From positions 1 to 64,000 of IMG/VR virus record IMGVR_UViG_2684623176_000004: a stretch of DNA of 64,000 bases. One strand, written 5' to 3'. The translations under genes were made by a program, and so were the position numbers. The notes below the pieces were generated by a model. That model saw only the letters and a list, made by a program, of their open reading frames with translations. It was not told where the DNA came from and did no database searches. Below, piece by piece: positions 19,596 through 60,126 of this stretch. The number at the start of each line of letters is the position of its first letter. Position 1 is the stretch's first letter. The stretch comes from a virus (taxonomy: Duplodnaviria; Caudoviricetes).

Positions 19596-19631
19596 TACGT
19601 CTTCCCCCCTTATCCCTTTAAAATCATCCTT

Positions 19632-19985
19632 TTAATGTAATGAATAAATTCCAGGTTCGCCGATGTCGCCCCCTAATGAATTAAGTGCTTTAAATTCTAA
19701 TTTAACTGCCAAGTCTCCATCTGTATTAAATTTAATTTTATCTACGTTCACCTTGACCACTTTTATTTCTCCCTCATAGCTTGTCAATTTCATTTTCAAT
19801 GGGTCTGTATGTGTTCCGTCTAAACCAAACACTTTAAAAGCTAATGAATCCTTACCAGTGTTTATTATGATTTTGTCCTCATCCTCAACAGCTTCAATGT
19901 TCTGGCAGTGAAGGACAATTTTCGTTTCCTTCGGTAAATAATTATTAAATTTTTCTTTATAAACAGAGACTTCTTTTAAAATCAT
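19632..19985 (-). CDS. Hypothetical protein
   Basis: ORF with RBS; bracketed by two perfect junction palindromes. Confidence 0.6.
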   Translation of the reverse strand: MILKEVSVYKEKFNNYLPKETKIVLHCQNIEAVEDEDKIIINTGKDSLAFKVFGLDGTHTDPLKMKLTSYEGEIKVVKVNVDKIKFNTDGDLAVKLEFKALNSLGGDIGEPGIYSLH

Positions 19986-20034
19986 ATCTGACTCTCCTTT
20001 TGCAAAATTGGTTTAAAATAAAACTTTTAACCGA

Positions 20035-22878: not shown

Positions 22879-22930
22879 AATATACTCGCATTCTCCCAAA
22901 CAATCAATAACTATTTTATTTTTATTCTTA
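22879..22930 (-). promoter_or_regulatory. SigA-type promoter with SPbeta repeated element
   Basis: GAATAAAAATAAAATA followed by TTGATT-N17-TATATT. Confidence 0.65.
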
Positions 22931-49727: not shown

Positions 49728-50130
49728 CTGCTTAATATATTCAGGATCACTAAGTTTTTTGAAATTGACTATCGGTTCTCACCCTTTCTTTAAAACAGTC
49801 TTTTTATCCAGTCGCTCTCTGCTGATTACTCATCACTTGTGGCTTCGCTTTAGCGCAATTTGGGATTGTTTATTATCTTATTAAAGCAGTTGTCAGTAAC
49901 TTCATTCTCGGGAGCAGATACTCACCCAGTTCTGTACGTGAATCCCAACTCACTTCTTTAATACTGGCAATCATCCCTTTTTCATCAATGGAATACTGAA
50001 TCGCAATTTTATCAGCCCCACATTCATACCTTTGTCTAATTTTCATCGGTACCCCTGCCTATCTTCGAAAAGTTATGTATTATTTAATTATCCCTTAGTC
50101 ATTTCTTTACTTCTCTTTAAAACTTCAATT

Positions 50131-52459: not shown

Positions 52460-52491
52460 GTTATTCCCCCTTATCTTAATCTCTATAAAAC

Positions 52492-52716
52492 TTACATTTT
52501 ATTTTTATTCTGAAAATAATCATGCTGATTTACAACATCTCGAAGTATGTATTGTATTTCCTCTAAATTGTCTTTAACAAAATCTAAGTCTCCAATTGCC
52601 ATTCTGATTTCATTATTCTCTATGCTGCGCAAAGACCTTTCACATGATGCTAAGAGCTTTGCATATTTCCTTAAAACCATAGTTCTTATTTGATTGTTAG
52701 TTGGTTCATTAATCAA
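52492..52716 (-). CDS. Hypothetical protein
   Basis: First gene after a promoter. Confidence 0.55.
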   Translation of the reverse strand: MINEPTNNQIRTMVLRKYAKLLASCERSLRSIENNEIRMAIGDLDFVKDNLEEIQYILRDVVNQHDYFQNKNKM

Positions 52717-53487: not shown

Positions 53488-53609
53488 CTTTTTTGTTGAC
53501 TTAATTATAACCTTTTACCTAGTTAGTGGCAAATCTTTTTTCTTTCATTTAAAAACTTGGAAAGAATTGATATAGTATGATAAGCAATACTATAACAGGA
53601 GGTTGTCCG

Positions 53610-53831
53610 ATGCTTGAGGTTGAAATCGGACAATGTTTGATATCCATTCTCCTTGAAAGTAGAGGAATGTCCCTAGGGCAACTTTCGGATCTAACAGGCA
53701 TCAGTAAGCAAAGGTTAAGTGATTACGCTAATGGCGTTAGACCTTCTATGAATATAAAAACAGCGAGAATCATTGCGATTGCCCTTAACTGTTCGATTGA
53801 AGACCTCTATGAATGGAAAATCAAACATTGA
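53610..53831 (+). CDS. yopS: XRE-family HTH regulator (YopS-like)
   Basis: AGGAGG RBS; HTH_3 pattern; hairpin at 53838-53860. Confidence 0.75.
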   Translation: MLEVEIGQCLISILLESRGMSLGQLSDLTGISKQRLSDYANGVRPSMNIKTARIIAIALNCSIEDLYEWKIKH

Positions 53832-54051: not shown

Positions 54052-55035
54052 TTAAGAATTAGTCTCAATTACTTCAGACTTGATACAATATTTTTCTAAG
54101 TTCTCCATATTCACTACTTTCCTCAGTGATTGTGAATTAAACTCTGCGTCTTCATTCAGGAACCCATATTGTCGAGTTATTTTTTTATAATCAGGTACTT
54201 TTAACTCACCCTTCTCTTTGTATATCTCATACGCCATGTTGAGCTTTCCTGAGTTGATAAGATTCTTAGGTGAAAAGAAGGGTTCTTCTAAAAATTTTTG
54301 AAACTGACTAAAAGAACGGTGAACTAAAAATTTGTCAGCTTTCATACTCTGATTAGAACTCTTATATTTTAGCCTAAAAATATTTTCACTTTTAACTAAT
54401 GTGGCAAATTTGTTTTTAAGACCACTATCTGGCGAACCATTGCTAAGATGATATGTTCTTTGGTCATTAGCACGCTTAAGCAACTCATAACATTTATCGC
54501 TTACAGTAATTATTCTTACACCATGTTTATCATCTACCAGCTTTACCTTGTTATCATCGAGTAAATCGTCACCTGTTAAATTCAGTAACTCTGAATGCTG
54601 ATAACCATCTATACCTTCATAAATAGCCTGTATCATGGCCTTATCCTGATAATTAACCATAAAATCAACATACTCTTCTACTTCTTTATTGGTGAATAGT
54701 GTTTTTTTGTTTTTATCTATAAACTGCTTTAAGTCACCATCCTGTATCTGATACACTTTGTTGATGTTACTGTTTGCCAAGCCATTTTCCATTGCCCAGG
54801 TTGTGTATTGTCCAATTACAGCTCGTGCTCCTCTTAATGAGTCTATAGATTTGCTATCCAAATCGAAAAATAACGTACGCAGCTCTTCCAAAGAAAAATT
54901 AAATATGTCTTTTTGAAGTATTTTTTCTGTAGCTGAGAAATCCCTTAGCCTTAGCCAATAATGGTTTCTTGTTGCTTCACTTTCGTATTTCTCTAAAAAC
55001 TTTTCCTTCAATTCAGCATTATACATTTCACTCAT
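54052..55035 (-). CDS. yopR: Master repressor with a degenerate tyrosine-recombinase fold (YopR/MrpR/SroF-like)
   Basis: [12 protein letters not shown]-terminus; YEGI in place of catalytic box I; synteny. Confidence 0.85.
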
Positions 55036-55054
55036 ATTAATTCTCCTTTAGGCT

Positions 55055-56404
55055 TTAAACAACAGCAATTTCATCATAAAATATTCGCTTAAGTTTCTTC
55101 TTCATAACATTCTTTAGTTGAATCTCATTATTTTGTCTTCCTAATTCTTCAAACACTCTTCCGCTTTTACTAAAGTCAATTGTATTAAGGATACTTTCAA
55201 GCTTGTCTAGTTCTATATTGTTTTCCTTCATCTTCTTGGCCAAATAAACATAACCGTAAAACATTACATTATGATTAATGTATGATTGCTTTCTAATGGA
55301 CGATAAATCATCTTCAAGAAATTCATCTGGGAAGGCATAAAAAAGGTTATCAAAAAAGTCAACCAGGTATTTTGAAATTTTTAATGCATCTTTTCGAGAT
55401 TTCAACTCAAATGCATCGTCTATAGCTTCGGATAAAGTGTAATATGTCACAAGGAAATTGCTATCAAGACCAATGTCACTTTGTGGGCTTATTTTATTTT
55501 TAAGTTCACTTTTAAATTTCAGCTGCTCGACAACGGTTGAAGAATACCGTTTTTGTCCTAATTCTTCAATTCTGGATTTTTCAACCGGGTTTATTGTATT
55601 CATTTGAGCAAAGTGAACCTTAGCCTTTTCTTCATCGTAATTGAGCACATTTAAAATGAATGGTTGATCTAATTCAGGGACTTCAGCAATGGCCTTAACA
55701 ATACCTGAAATTCGATGGTACCCATCTAGAGCATCTAATAAGGTTCCTCGCGTTACAGTGAGTGTTTGGTCGCTTGGATCATATTCAACTTCTTCATCAC
55801 CATCAGATGTTCCAAGACGAGCATTAAAAGTTAACATTGATACAATTAAATCGCCTTTGATAAACAATTCTTTGATCTCATCAACTGATTTAGGGTTTGT
55901 TTTAGGTACAGGGATAAGACTGCCCTTAATGTACTTTCCTTCACGCTGAGTGTTGTAATTGTACTGCAGGATGGAGCTATTATATAACTCACTAAGTTCC
56001 TTGGCAGTAATGGAAGTGACATAGTTATCCTCTTTAATTTTAATCACATTTTTGAACTTGTATGGTAGCTTAACTACTTCTTCACCGGCGAATACTCTCC
56101 CACCTTCAAGCTCTTTTGCCAATCTGGTTGGAAAATAATTTGAGGGATCTAAAGCTGGAGCCCCAAGAATTGAATACATCTCTTTTGAAACAATGTACAC
56201 TTCTTTTTCGTTTAAACGCTGTACGTTGTTATCATTATTATTTAAAATTTCTTGGATATAACCAGGGAGTGCCTTGTATTTGTCCGCCATTGTGGCTTTT
56301 AATTCCTTCACCATATTGGAATCATTTTTAATATCAATAAGATTTTTCTCTATTTCAGTTTTTAACTTATAAAGTTTATCCGTTGTTAACAAAACTTCAG
56401 ACAC
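55055..56404 (-). CDS. yopQ: DGQHR/ParB-like domain protein (YopQ/SroE-like)
   Basis: TQR and LDGYHR motifs; synteny. Confidence 0.8.
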   Translation of the reverse strand: MSEVLLTTDKLYKLKTEIEKNLIDIKNDSNMVKELKATMADKYKALPGYIQEILNNNDNNVQRLNEKEVYIVSKEMYSILGAPALDPSNYFPTRLAKELEGGRVFAGEEVVKLPYKFKNVIKIKEDNYVTSITAKELSELYNSSILQYNYNTQREGKYIKGSLIPVPKTNPKSVDEIKELFIKGDLIVSMLTFNARLGTSDGDEEVEYDPSDQTLTVTRGTLLDALDGYHRISGIVKAIAEVPELDQPFILNVLNYDEEKAKVHFAQMNTINPVEKSRIEELGQKRYSSTVVEQLKFKSELKNKISPQSDIGLDSNFLVTYYTLSEAIDDAFELKSRKDALKISKYLVDFFDNLFYAFPDEFLEDDLSSIRKQSYINHNVMFYGYVYLAKKMKENNIELDKLESILNTIDFSKSGRVFEELGRQNNEIQLKNVMKKKLKRIFYDEIAVV

Positions 56405-56480
56405 ATTATCACCTCACATAATCATATTAAATTTATCATTATTTTCATAAGCAAGTAAAGCTTTTATATGATTATTTGTG

Positions 56481-57539
56481 TCACTTGTTCAAAAACATTT
56501 TAAGTTTACTCTGTATATACATGTCTGATTTTAAAAAGAATTCTTTATACTGCTCTAAGGTAACATCATCTAAAAAAGACATGTCTTCTTTTTGATCAAC
56601 CAAAACCCCTGGATCTTGAGAATAATCCCTTTCATTGACCAAATAATGGTCATTTAAAGTATTGATATTGCTGTGACCAGAGAACGCTGCCACTTTTTTA
56701 ATATCACCATTAACGCTGTAAGAAAAGTTTGTTGCAGTATTGCGTAAACTATGCGGAGTTATCTTTCTTTCTTTGGGAATACCCATAACTCTACATACGC
56801 GATTCCACATATCCTGTATTGAATCAACTGTTAACTTATGAAATAACAGTTCATGCTCCCCATACTCTTGCTTCAACATCAGCAACTCTTCATAAAAAGC
56901 CGTGGAAATTCCAACTGGCCTAGCCTTTTTTTGCTTAGTTTTTTTAAAGTTGACGAGATAACATTGGTGCTTTTCTGAATAAGTAATATCATCCCACCCA
57001 ACTCTAAGCACCTCTGACTTACGCCCTCCAGTACGTGCACTAAACAAAATAAACATCTTTTTCATTAATCTGTTCTGACGCTCAGTAACATACGCTGCCT
57101 CAGCAAATTCATCAGCTTCAGATATTCCTTCAAAAGACCCTGCTGGGTTCTTTTCTGTTGGAAGAGGTCTAAAATTAAATACAGATGCGTCACACTCATG
57201 TTCAGACTCAAGATACTTAATCATACTTTTCAGTGCGGCAATCTTATTGTTAATTGTTGAATTGGAGTTACTTTTATTTTTAGCCAAATGGGTTCGATAA
57301 TCATACAGGTCACTCTTCTTGATCGCCAGGTCACTCTCAGTTAAGTATTCAATATCCTTGGCAGCATAGTGGTTGAAAAACTCTCTTACATGCCTTTCAT
57401 ACGTGGCTCTAGTATTAGACTTTTCAATTTCTCCAGTTTCTCGATCCCTGTTTCTTAAATCTAATTCATCAAACCACCTATTTATGTTGTTGAATATTGA
57501 ATAATCCCTTAGTGTTGACGCTTTCTTTTGAGCTTCCAT
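56481..57539 (-). CDS. yopP: Tyrosine recombinase (YopP/SroD-like), catalytic residues intact
   Basis: TGGRKSE, KTK, HSLR, GHS and DHY give the R-K-H-R-H-Y set. Confidence 0.85.
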   Translation of the reverse strand: MEAQKKASTLRDYSIFNNINRWFDELDLRNRDRETGEIEKSNTRATYERHVREFFNHYAAKDIEYLTESDLAIKKSDLYDYRTHLAKNKSNSNSTINNKIAALKSMIKYLESEHECDASVFNFRPLPTEKNPAGSFEGISEADEFAEAAYVTERQNRLMKKMFILFSARTGGRKSEVLRVGWDDITYSEKHQCYLVNFKKTKQKKARPVGISTAFYEELLMLKQEYGEHELLFHKLTVDSIQDMWNRVCRVMGIPKERKITPHSLRNTATNFSYSVNGDIKKVAAFSGHSNINTLNDHYLVNERDYSQDPGVLVDQKEDMSFLDDVTLEQYKEFFLKSDMYIQSKLKMFLNK

Positions 57540-57548
57540 AATGACACC

Positions 57549-57713
57549 TCATATCATTTTTTTCATTAAGTATTGATCAAATTCTTTCCACGCAACAATC
57601 CATTCATTTTCACCTTGAATATTACTAAGCAGCATTATATTGGCGTTACAGATTTCCATTTGCTTTAACATGTCGTATTCTTTAAGAGCGTTAATTAAGA
57701 TGTCTGTATTCAT
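57549..57713 (-). CDS. 54-aa protein of the sro operon
   Basis: AGGTG RBS; MNTDILINALKEY... Confidence 0.6.
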   Translation of the reverse strand: MNTDILINALKEYDMLKQMEICNANIMLLSNIQGENEWIVAWKEFDQYLMKKMI

Positions 57714-57751
57714 TTTATCACACCTAATTTATTTTTATCCTATAATAAAAT

Positions 57752-57982
57752 TCAGTTTAGGACATTTACCCTTTCGTCCTTACAGACGTTTATAATTGGC
57801 ATCCCCGTCAATTCCTCATAAAGTTCCTCTTCGAATCCAACCCATTCATCACTTGTCGCTTCTCTTCGTAAGAACTCATTATAAGCAACTGCTATCTCAG
57901 GCTGCTCTAGAAACTTTAAAACGATCATATGCTTTTTCCAAACTTTAGCCTTGTTTTCTTCTGTATAATATTTATTATTCAT
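57752..57982 (-). CDS. phi3T_93/SroB-like lysis-lysogeny protein
   Basis: MNNKYYTEENKAKVWKKHMIVLKFL...; position downstream of aimX. Confidence 0.65.
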   Translation of the reverse strand: MNNKYYTEENKAKVWKKHMIVLKFLEQPEIAVAYNEFLRREATSDEWVGFEEELYEELTGMPIINVCKDERVNVLN

Positions 57983-57996
57983 TTTATTTTTACTCC

Positions 57997-58209
57997 TCAA
58001 ATACATTTTATAGAATTTTTTTGTTCTTTAATGAGGTTGTATTCTTTATGATTTTTTCTCATTGTAGTTACATTATTAGGTGTAAACACATCTGGATCCT
58101 CTAGGTGGAGATTGACTCGTGTGAAGTTCTTTAGTTGTTTTATGTATTGATATTGTCTTAATGATGTAATCTTCAACTCTTCCTTTTGAGTGGCACTGGT
58201 TGTTTCCAT
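57997..58209 (-). CDS. First gene of the sro operon (YopM/SroA position)
   Basis: GGGAG RBS; follows a promoter. Confidence 0.55.
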   Translation of the reverse strand: METTSATQKEELKITSLRQYQYIKQLKNFTRVNLHLEDPDVFTPNNVTTMRKNHKEYNLIKEQKNSIKCI

Positions 58210-58245
58210 TGTTTCATCTCCCAACAACGTTCATCTTGTAACTTC

Positions 58246-58296
58246 ATTATATATGTTGCTACAATAATATGCAATAATTTATTTTATTTTTATTCA
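58246..58296 (-). promoter_or_regulatory. SigA-type promoter of the sro operon with SPbeta repeated element
   Basis: GAATAAAAATAAAATA followed by TTGCAT-N17-TATAAT. Confidence 0.72.
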
Positions 58297-58358: not shown

Positions 58359-58514
58359 TTAGGATACCTTTGCTTTATATTTTGATCTAATCATTTCTGC
58401 TTCATTTTCAAGATGATTATCTTCCTGGGAAATTTCTAAATTAATATCTCCCATTTCCATGTACCCTTTGGCCATTTCCTCATAAGAAAGTGCTTGCCCG
58501 AAATGCTTTTTCAT
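58359..58514 (-). CDS. aimX: AimX (51 aa)
   Basis: MKKHFGQALSYEEMAKGYMEMGDINLEISQEDNHLENEAEMIRSKYKAKVS, similar to phi3T AimX; not in the ORF track. Confidence 0.88.
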   Translation of the reverse strand: MKKHFGQALSYEEMAKGYMEMGDINLEISQEDNHLENEAEMIRSKYKAKVS

Positions 58515-58802: not shown

Positions 58803-59942
58803 CTAAATTAAATTTAACAGCTCCGGATCACAGCCTAATTTTTCGAGTTCTATTATTGTTAATTGGATAAAATATTTATCATCTGATTTTTTGAAATATG
58901 TTATTGATTTATAAAAATCAGATTTTTGTTTTGATATCAAACCTTTATAATAAAAATAAAATCCTAATTCGTTTTCATCTTGATCCCTATTTGATAAGCT
59001 TTCCAATAATTCGTTGGCCTTGTCGAGATTATTATTTTTTATGTAATAAAAAGCCCTAAGCTGCTGATATTTGATATCGTCTGATTCATAGTTAACCCAT
59101 GGATTTTCCTTGTTCCATACATTAGCCAGGAAGCAAAGAGCACCATTTAGCATTTCTTTATGGGTATCATTATGAACATACTTCTTTGCCTCAATATACG
59201 CCAGCATAGCTTCTTCATAGTTTTCGAAAATTAGAGTGTTTCCTATTGTCAGATGCGCAAAAAAACATATTCGTTTCACATTGGACTGCATTATTGCAAA
59301 ATTTGAATGTTTCCTCGCTTCGATTAAATTGTTTTCATTTAAGCTTATATTCGCTTGTAACATTGACACTCTACTTTTGTACGAATCTTTTATAAATCCT
59401 TCTGGCAAGCTTCTAAAATCTAAAAGTGTTAAAGTGCTTTTCATCAATCCAAACTCACCAATATTCAAGTATTTGTACATTAGCATTGCATCTGAGAAAA
59501 ATGACATTTCTGGAGCTTTACATCTCCCACACTCTCTTATTGCTTCTGGTATTGAGATTTGGTTTTTATATAGCTTTCTATGTATGTTGTAGATGTTTCC
59601 CCATTCTTGACTTGTTGTGTTTTTTGAGTTACTTAAATTTAATATAATCTTGTCAGTTAACGAATCCCATTGATTTATATCAGAGTATTCAACAGATTGT
59701 CTAGCACATTTTTTGTTGGGATCCAATGTTAAGAAGTAATCACTTAGAAGCTGCTCTTCATTATCAGGAAACAAGTTTTTAACAATCTTAATTAAACCGC
59801 CTAAGTTGTCCATTTCTTTCTCTGGGGTGTTAATGAACTTGTAAAAACCATTAACCTTTTCGTATCCTGCCATTTTTGACAGTTTCGTTGCGAGTTGGTT
59901 GTCTTTTTCACATTCATTCTTAATCATCTGCTTAAGATTCAT
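58803..59942 (-). CDS. aimR: Arbitrium receptor AimR (phi3T-type)
   Basis: MIKNECEKDNQLA..GYEKVNGFYKF N-terminus and TPR repeats; adjacent to aimP. Confidence 0.95.
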   Translation of the reverse strand: MNLKQMIKNECEKDNQLATKLSKMAGYEKVNGFYKFINTPEKEMDNLGGLIKIVKNLFPDNEEQLLSDYFLTLDPNKKCARQSVEYSDINQWDSLTDKIILNLSNSKNTTSQEWGNIYNIHRKLYKNQISIPEAIRECGRCKAPEMSFFSDAMLMYKYLNIGEFGLMKSTLTLLDFRSLPEGFIKDSYKSRVSMLQANISLNENNLIEARKHSNFAIMQSNVKRICFFAHLTIGNTLIFENYEEAMLAYIEAKKYVHNDTHKEMLNGALCFLANVWNKENPWVNYESDDIKYQQLRAFYYIKNNNLDKANELLESLSNRDQDENELGFYFYYKGLISKQKSDFYKSITYFKKSDDKYFIQLTIIELEKLGCDPELLNLI

Positions 59943-59983: not shown

Positions 59984-60034
59984 AATATACATTAGAGTTG
60001 TCAGAATTACAAGTATTTATTTTATTTTTATTCT
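59984..60034 (-). promoter_or_regulatory. aimR promoter with SPbeta repeated element
   Basis: GAATAAAAATAAAATA followed by TTGTAA-N17-TATATT. Confidence 0.7.
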
Positions 60035-60126
60035 AATTATTTTTTGAAGAATCCTTATCTGTTTAAAATTCGTATTTTATTTAAAACCTTCTCACAATAG
60101 CTTTACTGCAAGAAGGCATCTTACGA

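Follow-up and report, generated by a model that had tools for sequence, protein, structure and literature searches.

A window of 64,000 nucleotides, forming the first part of a 126,873-base-pair (bp) provirus record (IMGVR_UViG_2684623176_000004), belongs to a phi3T-like prophage of the SPbeta family. Two neighbouring minus-strand genes within it, at 56481-57539 and 55055-56404, encode SroD and SroE of that prophage, SroD being an already described operon member. On balance, and with moderate confidence, we favour a reading in which SroD, a simple recombinase encoded by the fourth gene of sroA-F, most likely serves as a site-specific DNA clamp that aids repression together with SroE and SroF. 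The window is also rich in a palindrome, TAAAA-N6-TTTTA, located at gene junctions, which is the leading, as yet unproven, candidate for the DNA site of SroD.

The identity of SroD and SroE follows from gene order and from high identity to phi3T. The order aimR, aimX-position open reading frame (ORF), three small ORFs, sroD, sroE, sroF and a divergent helix-turn-helix (HTH) gene is that of phi3T_89 to phi3T_98, with sroA-C and aimX placed by position only. Amino acid identity to the phi3T proteins is 76.8% for SroD (over 97% of its length), 75.9% for SroE and 78% for SroF; against SPbeta it is 31.5% to YopP (over 96-97% of the length), about 40% to YopQ and about 31% to YopR. The operon has been named sroABCDEF (PMC10769878), with SroF as master repressor and SroE as second repressor (10.1101/2025.11.27.690993). 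A first-pass annotation had described the two ORFs as a recombinase and its partner in a repressor operon. Their coordinates, which give products of 352 and 449 amino acids, agree with that description, and the operon is the known sroA-F operon, downstream of AimR. The genes of the region are as follows.

53577..53831, plus strand: YopS-like HTH protein, divergent from the operon end (HTH_3, 2.9e-10; position of phi3T_98).
54052..55035, minus strand: sroF (YopR/MrpR/phi3T_97 orthologue), recombinase-fold repressor, 327 amino acids (PF22823, MrpR_N_CB; PF22822, MrpR_C_cat).
55055..56404, minus strand: sroE (YopQ/phi3T_96 orthologue), DndB/DGQHR family, 449 amino acids (PF14072).
56481..57539, minus strand: sroD (YopP/phi3T_95 orthologue), 352 amino acids (from the ORF, PF00589 and PF02899, identity and fold).
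57549..57713, minus strand: sroC-position ORF, 54 amino acids (placed by position relative to the phi3T annotation only).
57752..58006, minus strand: sroB-position ORF, 84 amino acids (position only).
57997..58227, minus strand: sroA-position ORF, 76 amino acids (position only).
58359..58514, minus strand: aimX-position ORF, 51 amino acids (position and length of phi3T_91; a DNA match to phi3T spans the stretch).
58803..59942, minus strand: aimR, arbitrium receptor (PF22871, 5e-99; NF038310, 9.3e-77).

The order D-E-F is kept in Geobacillus virus E3, Psychrobacillus phage Perkons and a Staphylococcus SPbeta-like phage.

SroD was expected from its letters alone to retain the R, K, HxxR, H and Y residues of a tyrosine recombinase, and alignment of a nine-orthologue profile with XerA (5hxy, 4a8e), XerH and XerD bore this out. 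R173 in TGGR lies opposite TGVR, K205 in TKQKKAR lies opposite GKGDKDR, and H263 and R266 in HSLR, H289 and Y299 fall at the catalytic positions. Judged by its residues, the predicted recombinase active site of SroD is complete. The protein matches PF00589 at 2.1e-14 (54.1 bits, cut-off 27.1) and PF02899 at 3.7e-06; a phmmer search of the PDB with SroD alone returned no match, and a profile was needed. An AlphaFold2 (AF2) model built on 90 family sequences (predicted local distance difference test score, pLDDT, 92.2; predicted template modelling score, pTM, 0.80) was matched by Foldseek to XerA, XerH, Tn1549 Int, Cre and lambda Int at E values of 5e-10 to 1e-6. SroD is a "simple" recombinase, comprising an N-terminal core-binding domain and a catalytic domain with no arm-binding domain; about 50 further residues (310-351) form an additional helical tail after the tyrosine. 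It is neither a Xer nor an integron-integrase orthologue, because its NCBIfam scores are far under the respective cut-offs: 75.7 against 220 for NF040815 (XerA), 53.5 against 335 for TIGR02224 (XerC), 44.8 against 330 for TIGR02225 (XerD) and 29.9 against 265 for TIGR02249 (IntI).

An exhaustive homologue search of a library clustered at 50% identity returned 1374 SroD relatives at E<=0.001, of which 273 were at E<=1e-10, while a word-indexed search gave 6 matches only. We aligned 150 sequences, namely the query, phi3T_95, YopP and 147 of 155 proteins, the 147 being at least 290 amino acids long and the eight shorter ones dropped. Within this set, Arg I and His II are invariant (150/150 each), the His/Trp III position is H in 145 and W in 3, and the nucleophile is Y in 148. 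The expectation that the catalytic residues would be conserved among homologues therefore holds in part: conservation is strong in the pocket and at the nucleophile but not at two of the six positions, Arg II being R in 88 and K in 62 sequences and the loop Lys being present in 94 and missing in 56. All six residues are present together in 58 of the 150. Arg II, position 266 of the window protein, is thus dimorphic, in contrast to the almost unchanging Arg I, His II and Tyr, and tyrosine recombinases do not usually have a conserved Lys there.

The hexad also differs between phi3T-type and SPbeta-type phages. The phi3T protein reads R-K-H-R-H-Y, as in the window, and SPbeta YopP reads R-Q-H-K-H-Y. 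Across 51 viral loci found with a 9-sequence alignment, RKHRHY occurred in 28, RQHKHY in 16 and RKHKHY in 5, the remaining 2 (L081 and L084, with ORFs of 147 and 185 amino acids) being unreadable and dropped from the hexad count. All 16 SPbeta-type loci were RQHKHY and all 27 window-type and phi3T-type loci were RKHRHY. Among named phages, E3 has the complete hexad, Perkons is without the loop Lys, and Lys stands at Arg II in the Staphylococcus SPbeta-like phage, Tsamsa, FADO and AM1. Full-length family members in AM1, FADO and Tsamsa match the profile at E values of 3e-88 to 3e-98. The Lactococcus phage AM1 gene (L010 140-1159) is the first in its record and lies beside exonuclease V, the Tsamsa gene (L009 2405-3421) lies beside a nicking replication initiator, and FADO (L016) likewise has a strong SroD-family gene. 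SroE had no tblastn match in the AM1, Tsamsa and FADO records, and the displayed genes beside the SroD relatives of AM1 and Tsamsa include none annotated as SroE- or SroF-type. Since strong members stand without detectable SroE, the SroD family is older and wider than the repressor operon.

SroE, the immediate partner, matches PF14072 (DndB) at 7.9e-16 (58.5 bits, cut-off 29.1). It had been labelled a DGQHR protein; the family match supports the label, but the motif itself reads DGYHR (residues 227-231; consensus DGFHR). D227, G228, H230 and R231 are invariant in 36 relatives, and the family also keeps Q153 and R154. The AF2 model (pLDDT 81.5) starts with an additional helical stretch of about 110 residues and shows weak structural matches to ParB N-domains, Noc, KorB and sulfiredoxin (Srx), so that a "ParB-like" description, as judged from the model, is plausible but not firm. 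The protein falls far under the DndB equivalog (TIGR03233, 23.5 against 328), and no dnd genes lie beside sroE among the ORFs scanned, its neighbours being sroD and sroF. A suggestion that SroE might assist SroD at the palindromes found no support, because phages without detectable SroE are equally site-rich: FADO and Tsamsa are rich in palindromes, yet SroE was not found in them by tblastn.

SroF, encoded two genes downstream of sroD, matches the phi3T SroF structure 9rd5 at 7e-163 and also YopR/MrpR (8bjv, 8a0a). In a low-confidence alignment to the SroD family its Arg I position is Q and its tyrosine position L, with neither the loop Lys nor HxxR present; hhalign gave a probability of 10.8% for this pairing, in the C-terminal half. 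The earlier statement that the YopR-like neighbour has lost its catalytic residues is nonetheless upheld, as this weak profile alignment agrees with the report of a SroF without catalytic tyrosine in 10.1101/2025.11.27.690993. The same source describes SroF as binding a box of 24-26 bp as a monomer. We found a SroF-operator-like repeat, AGARTRAAAATAAAAT, 27 times in the window with up to 2 mismatches (15 exact) against 2.3 expected; 26 copies are on the minus (coding) strand, and they range from 3461 to 60034 (for example 22913-22928, 52496-52511, 58281-58296 and 60019-60034). Its core matches the phi3T SroF operator given in 10.1101/2025.11.27.690993. By this sequence likeness, the copies of AGARTRAAAATAAAAT are probably the set of SroF boxes of this phage, including boxes before the sroA-position ORF and before aimR. 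The former is the following.

58281..58296, minus strand: SroF-box-like repeat before the sroA-position ORF (from the AGARTRAAAATAAAAT scan).

We propose that SroD would clamp a particular site in the phage DNA, in the manner of other recombinases with this fold, and that DNA-bound SroD would contribute to repression together with SroE and SroF, a shared role that may not need catalysis. Beside the identity, synteny, fold and residues observed above, we infer the clamp mode and the dispensability of catalysis for repression. Repression is probably independent of full catalysis because SPbeta YopP is without the loop Lys and has Lys at Arg II, and yet the phi3T and SPbeta operons are described as functionally equivalent (PMC8612738). 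Selection on the active-site pocket is shown by the complete hexad of the phi3T clade and by the near-invariance of Arg I, His II, His/Trp III and Tyr across the family; this selection could act on phosphate contacts in DNA binding or on real cleavage and rejoining. MrpR offers a case in which "catalytic" residues of the recombinase fold can serve binding alone, its Y304F variant having lower DNA affinity (PMC10516654). Several points weigh against a clamp in repression. A tyrosine in 148 of 150 proteins would seem to exceed what DNA binding alone would need; the conserved Lys at Arg II (62 of 150) could be a working variant chemistry, not decay; and the distribution of the family places its ancestral role outside lysogeny repression. 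Our literature search, moreover, found no description of SroD activity, or of 3'-phosphotyrosyl cleavage or strand exchange by SroD. In favour of the clamp reading, it matches the role of auxiliary repressor in lysogeny that Brady and colleagues reportedly gave SroD in 2023.

The palindrome is real and sharply defined, as the first-pass annotation had it. The window holds 22 TAAAA-N6-TTTTA sites against 0.90 +/- 0.88 in 100 shuffles (largest 3), and only the exact form is enriched: allowing up to 1 mismatch gave 43 sites, including the 22 exact ones, against 20.1 expected. Sites span 3480-60079 of the window, and the whole record has 30, the rest lying within G000 65891-122883, so that the first 64 kb hold 22 and the other 63 kb 8. 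For 115 oriented sites in seven genomes (the window's record, phi3T, SPbeta, E3, Tsamsa, FADO and AM1), the upstream stop codon stands directly before the left arm or is its TAA, with A at -1 in 87% and AGA at +19 to +21. The next start codon follows about 20-30 bases after the right arm, and the palindrome sits ahead of the next ribosome-binding site. Spacers differ among junctions, but are identical at orthologous junctions of the window, phi3T and SPbeta. In geometry, the palindrome has inverted arms and a 6-bp spacer, as in the core site of a tyrosine recombinase. A search for lineage-specific variants found either the same TAAAA-N6-TTTTA or nothing, and a literature search found no paper on this palindrome. 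The SPBc2 record carries annotated palindromes of its own (L002 3663-3678 and 8201-8218), whose sequences differ from this one, and a role of the palindrome as YonO promoter was considered and rejected. The two sites that flank the operon region are given below.

52486..52501: nearest downstream palindrome, a homology breakpoint against phi3T and close relatives.
60064..60079: palindrome upstream of aimR; homology to 14 relatives ends 1-7 bases beyond it, and RNA-library contigs diverge at 60080-60085.

The distribution of the palindrome across phages was proposed as a check on its link to SroD, in that abundance in phages lacking the gene would speak against it. The motif is enriched in eight other carriers, with sites (reversed-pattern control in brackets) numbering 30 (2) in phi3T, 34 (2) in SPbeta, 30 (7) in E3, 17 (2) in Perkons, 17 (8) in the Staphylococcus SPbeta-like phage, where enrichment is weak, 23 (3) in Tsamsa, 33 (1) in FADO and 9 (1) in AM1. 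It is without enrichment in four phages without a SroD-family gene, namely SPO1 with 0 (0), SPP1 with 0 (2), phi105 with 0 (0) and phage K with 4 (4). The SroD-family profile had no match in phage K and only a 61-position fragment at E=0.005 in SPO1, while SPP1 and phi105 count as non-carriers only by their absence from the tblastn matches. Around SroD relatives, 47 of the 51 viral loci had 3-14 sites in about 21 kb, and the four most distant had 0-1. However, co-occurrence is confounded by the shared ancestry of large Bacillota siphoviruses, so that any core gene would fit as well. A second proposed check, on whether an intact hexad and the motif occur together, shows that site abundance does not track the hexad, SPbeta (R-Q-H-K-H-Y) having 34 sites against 30 in phi3T.

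Palindromes mark mosaic boundaries in the SPbeta group; the association is real, although it does not by itself prove site-specific exchange. In a test for breaks of homology or synteny, based on our own approximate gene calls, junctions with the motif broke in 15 cases and stayed the same in 1 between this prophage and phi3T (without motif 31 and 51, p=3e-5), in 13 and 0 against SPbeta (27 and 36, p=8e-5), and in 7 and 5 between phi3T and SPbeta (26 and 65, p=0.04). When junctions were limited to those with 25-150 bp of spacer between the genes, three of six directional tests stayed at p<0.05 and three were lost. BLAST matches ended at motifs 16 times against 6.1 and 17 times against 5.5 under a junction-matched null, with none of 500 draws reaching the observed value. 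Among 27 close relatives, homology often ended 1-8 bases outside the motif edge (for example at 49807, 50424, 60080 and 51250), and many gene boundaries without the motif were breakpoints as well. The one-gene segment 19606-20029 (ORF 19632-19985), flanked by the palindromes at 19619 and 20014, is shared with SPbeta, while phi3T has a shorter unrelated stretch between the palindromes matching these two. Between FADO and Tsamsa, 0 of 108 homology ends fell at motifs. The breakpoint association is no proof of exchange because a conserved junction island by itself stops BLAST extension.

The first-pass annotation put SroD forward as a candidate for acting on these palindromes. What stands of this is that the sites are real, enriched in carriers and similar in geometry to a recombinase core; no result links SroD to them. 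Were SroD an active recombinase on junction palindromes, a pair of protomers would occupy the inverted arms, with strand exchange over the 6-bp spacer. Spacers being particular to each junction, heterology would prevent recombination between different sites within a genome, and only the same junction in two related genomes residing together could exchange productively, an integron-like or "multi-dif" swapping of modules. Such a reading would account for sites that are enriched in exact form only (22 against 0.9), as a protein recognition site would be, for spacers conserved at orthologous junctions, for a placement between stop codon and ribosome-binding site like that of cassette boundaries, for the excess of homology breaks and BLAST match ends at motif junctions, for the bounded segment at 19606-20029 that is present in SPbeta and replaced in phi3T, and for enrichment in the window and the eight carriers but not in SPO1, SPP1, phi105 or phage K. 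We nonetheless think it unlikely. The co-occurrence follows shared ancestry, and a YomM-like recombinase shares the distribution where tested; SPbeta has its 34 sites with R-Q-H-K-H-Y; in AM1, 8 of 9 sites lie inside genes, and four carrier loci have 0-1 sites; FADO and Tsamsa do not break at motifs, while boundaries without the motif break too; arms of only 5-7 bp are short for a recombinase; the conserved island would stop BLAST unaided; and SroF boxes at or near six palindromes fit a regulatory element at the edges of transcription units. A competing account, with close to an even chance, makes the palindromes a gene-expression element unrelated to any recombinase. They would be either operators for some phage regulator that binds as a dimer or RNA elements where cistrons meet, and would coincide with mosaic boundaries for no other reason than that expression units move as wholes. 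This account draws on their polarity relative to transcription, with the stop codon before or in the left arm and the flanking A and AGA, on their greater density in the early region, and on the 5 of 22 palindromes that adjoin or overlap SroF boxes, with a sixth about 30 bp from one, which fits a regulatory reading of at least those junctions. An RNA hairpin, however, would need a stronger stem than 5 bp of A-U, and the exactness of the sequence points to recognition by a protein; no regulator was identified, and a sigma-70-type promoter scan gave 80 hits against 74.1, with no excess.

A catalytic SroD might alternatively serve one dedicated site unrelated to the palindromes, in resolution of replication multimers or circularisation of the incoming genome, after the manner of Cre/loxP in P1 or XerCD/dif in chromosomes, its place in the operon being secondary. 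The closest folds and profiles to SroD are the Xer-type resolvases XerA, XerH and XerD, the Tyr and Arg I are nearly invariant, and the family occurs in AM1, Tsamsa and FADO without tblastn-detectable SroE, beside exonuclease V in AM1 and a nicking replication initiator in Tsamsa. We regard this as distinctly improbable: no long inverted-repeat site came to notice, although no search was aimed at one, the SPbeta clade is without the loop Lys and Arg II, and sroD is co-transcribed with repressors and is reported as transcribed from the dormant SPbeta prophage in 1 of 3 data sets (10.1101/2021.11.22.469490). More speculatively, the SroD family, perhaps with the YomM-like proteins, and the palindromes could form a module-exchange system of large Bacillota siphoviruses, in which the spacer would act as the "address" of a junction, cassettes would be swapped between co-resident genomes without flanking homology, and SroD would double as a roadblock auxiliary repressor in SPbeta-type phages; we hold this to be quite unlikely.

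The YomM-like gene also qualifies the claim that SroD is the best in-window candidate for acting on the palindromes: SroD does lie within the window, but the claim holds only because the other gene lies outside it.

G000 104834-105892 (L003 1033-2091), outside the window: YomM-like recombinase-fold gene, 352 amino acids, situated in the late structural operon, immediately ahead of the tape-measure gene.

Against XerA, the YomM-like protein keeps Arg I, Lys, HxxR and His III, and the alignment stops short of the tyrosine. A second, weaker profile match of about 330 amino acids, possibly a YomM relative, was found in FADO, Tsamsa and AM1.

Transcript data on the operon itself provide a hint. In one library from a 97.7%-identical relative, RNA contig depth was 28 over sroF, sroE and the 3' 630 bases of sroD, 8 over the rest of sroD, 3-5 over sroA-C and 13.5 over aimR; these contigs give neither strand nor level, and the depth pattern is weak evidence. 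Internal initiation or unequal stability could explain the step from about 28 at 54066-57109 to 3-8 at 57190-58242. None of the raw RNA reads of run X24 mapped to the stretch, and the long flat RNA contigs of X1 and X6 are indistinguishable from DNA carry-over.

Near-identical proteins bear Bacillus velezensis names, and the prophage appears, from the truncated host gene at its edge, to be inserted in a permease gene. The permease gene is cut at 1607, which places the prophage edge near 1.6-1.8 kb and bears out the earlier remark that SroD lies about 55 kb from the visible host junction. Integration sites of the SPbeta family include spsM and kamA, and the permease gene is neither. The spoVK site named in the abstract of the Kohm preprint also differs from the permease site here. 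The genes at the two ends of the record are listed below.

684-1607: Xan_ur_permease, host gene, truncated (profile positions 127-388 of 389 match; the first ~126 are missing).
L005 5598-6758 (G000 125597-126757): Rap-type phosphatase gene (RapH_N and TPR), at the very end of the provirus record.

No serine recombinase was found in the 126,873-bp record. The record stops just past the Rap-type gene, at the end where phi3T has its serine integrase phi3T_1, and the serine integrase was therefore probably cut off. That SroD has no obvious integration role, as first described, stands, but is unproven for this prophage, the integrase end probably being cut off.

The sroD gene itself is ordinary, a new orthologue of a described operon member. 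Of wider interest is that a widespread phage family of recombinase fold keeps its nucleophile and most of its pocket, and that the only role it is known to have in print is, reportedly, helping a repressor. A link between SroD and the palindromes would explain how phage genomes evolve in modules and would supply recombination sites that can be addressed singly; without such a link, the palindrome still stands as a hitherto undescribed, sharply defined regulatory element of the model phages SPbeta and phi3T.

Among known systems, the closest is the phi3T operon, where SroD (phi3T_95) holds the same position after aimR, aimP and aimX, at 76.8% identity and with the same R-K-H-R-H-Y; SPbeta YopP holds the same position, but at 31.5% identity and with R-Q-H-K-H-Y. 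The present prophage differs from both in that its host appears to be of the B. velezensis group and in its location in a permease gene. The Xer-type recombinases (XerA 5hxy/4a8e, XerH 5jjv, XerD 1a0p), which were the best matches, resemble SroD in having two domains, no arm-binding domain and a full hexad, whereas SroD falls below the equivalog cut-offs, has a tail of about 50 residues and is phage-borne in a repressor operon. We know of no dif-like site for SroD, dif-type sites being 28-34 bp long. Integron integrases and their attC sites are alike in layout only, with a recombinase and repeated palindromes after stop codons bounding exchangeable genes. The attC sites are structured hairpins of 57-141 bp, whereas the sites here are 16-bp exact palindromes whose 1-mismatch variants are at chance level, and there is no attI or Pc platform. 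MrpR/YopR/SroF (8a0a, 8bjv, 9rd5) share the fold family and the operon with SroD, and both proteins have been proposed to act in repression; unlike SroD, SroF no longer has the catalytic residues, and it can hardly be aligned with SroD (10.8%). Finally, SroE resembles the DndB/DGQHR proteins in scoring above the Pfam cut-off, in its DG[F/Y]HR and QR motifs and in a weak ParB-N/Srx-like fold, but differs in its score far below the equivalog, in its extra N-terminal region and in being a reported phage repressor (10.1101/2025.11.27.690993).

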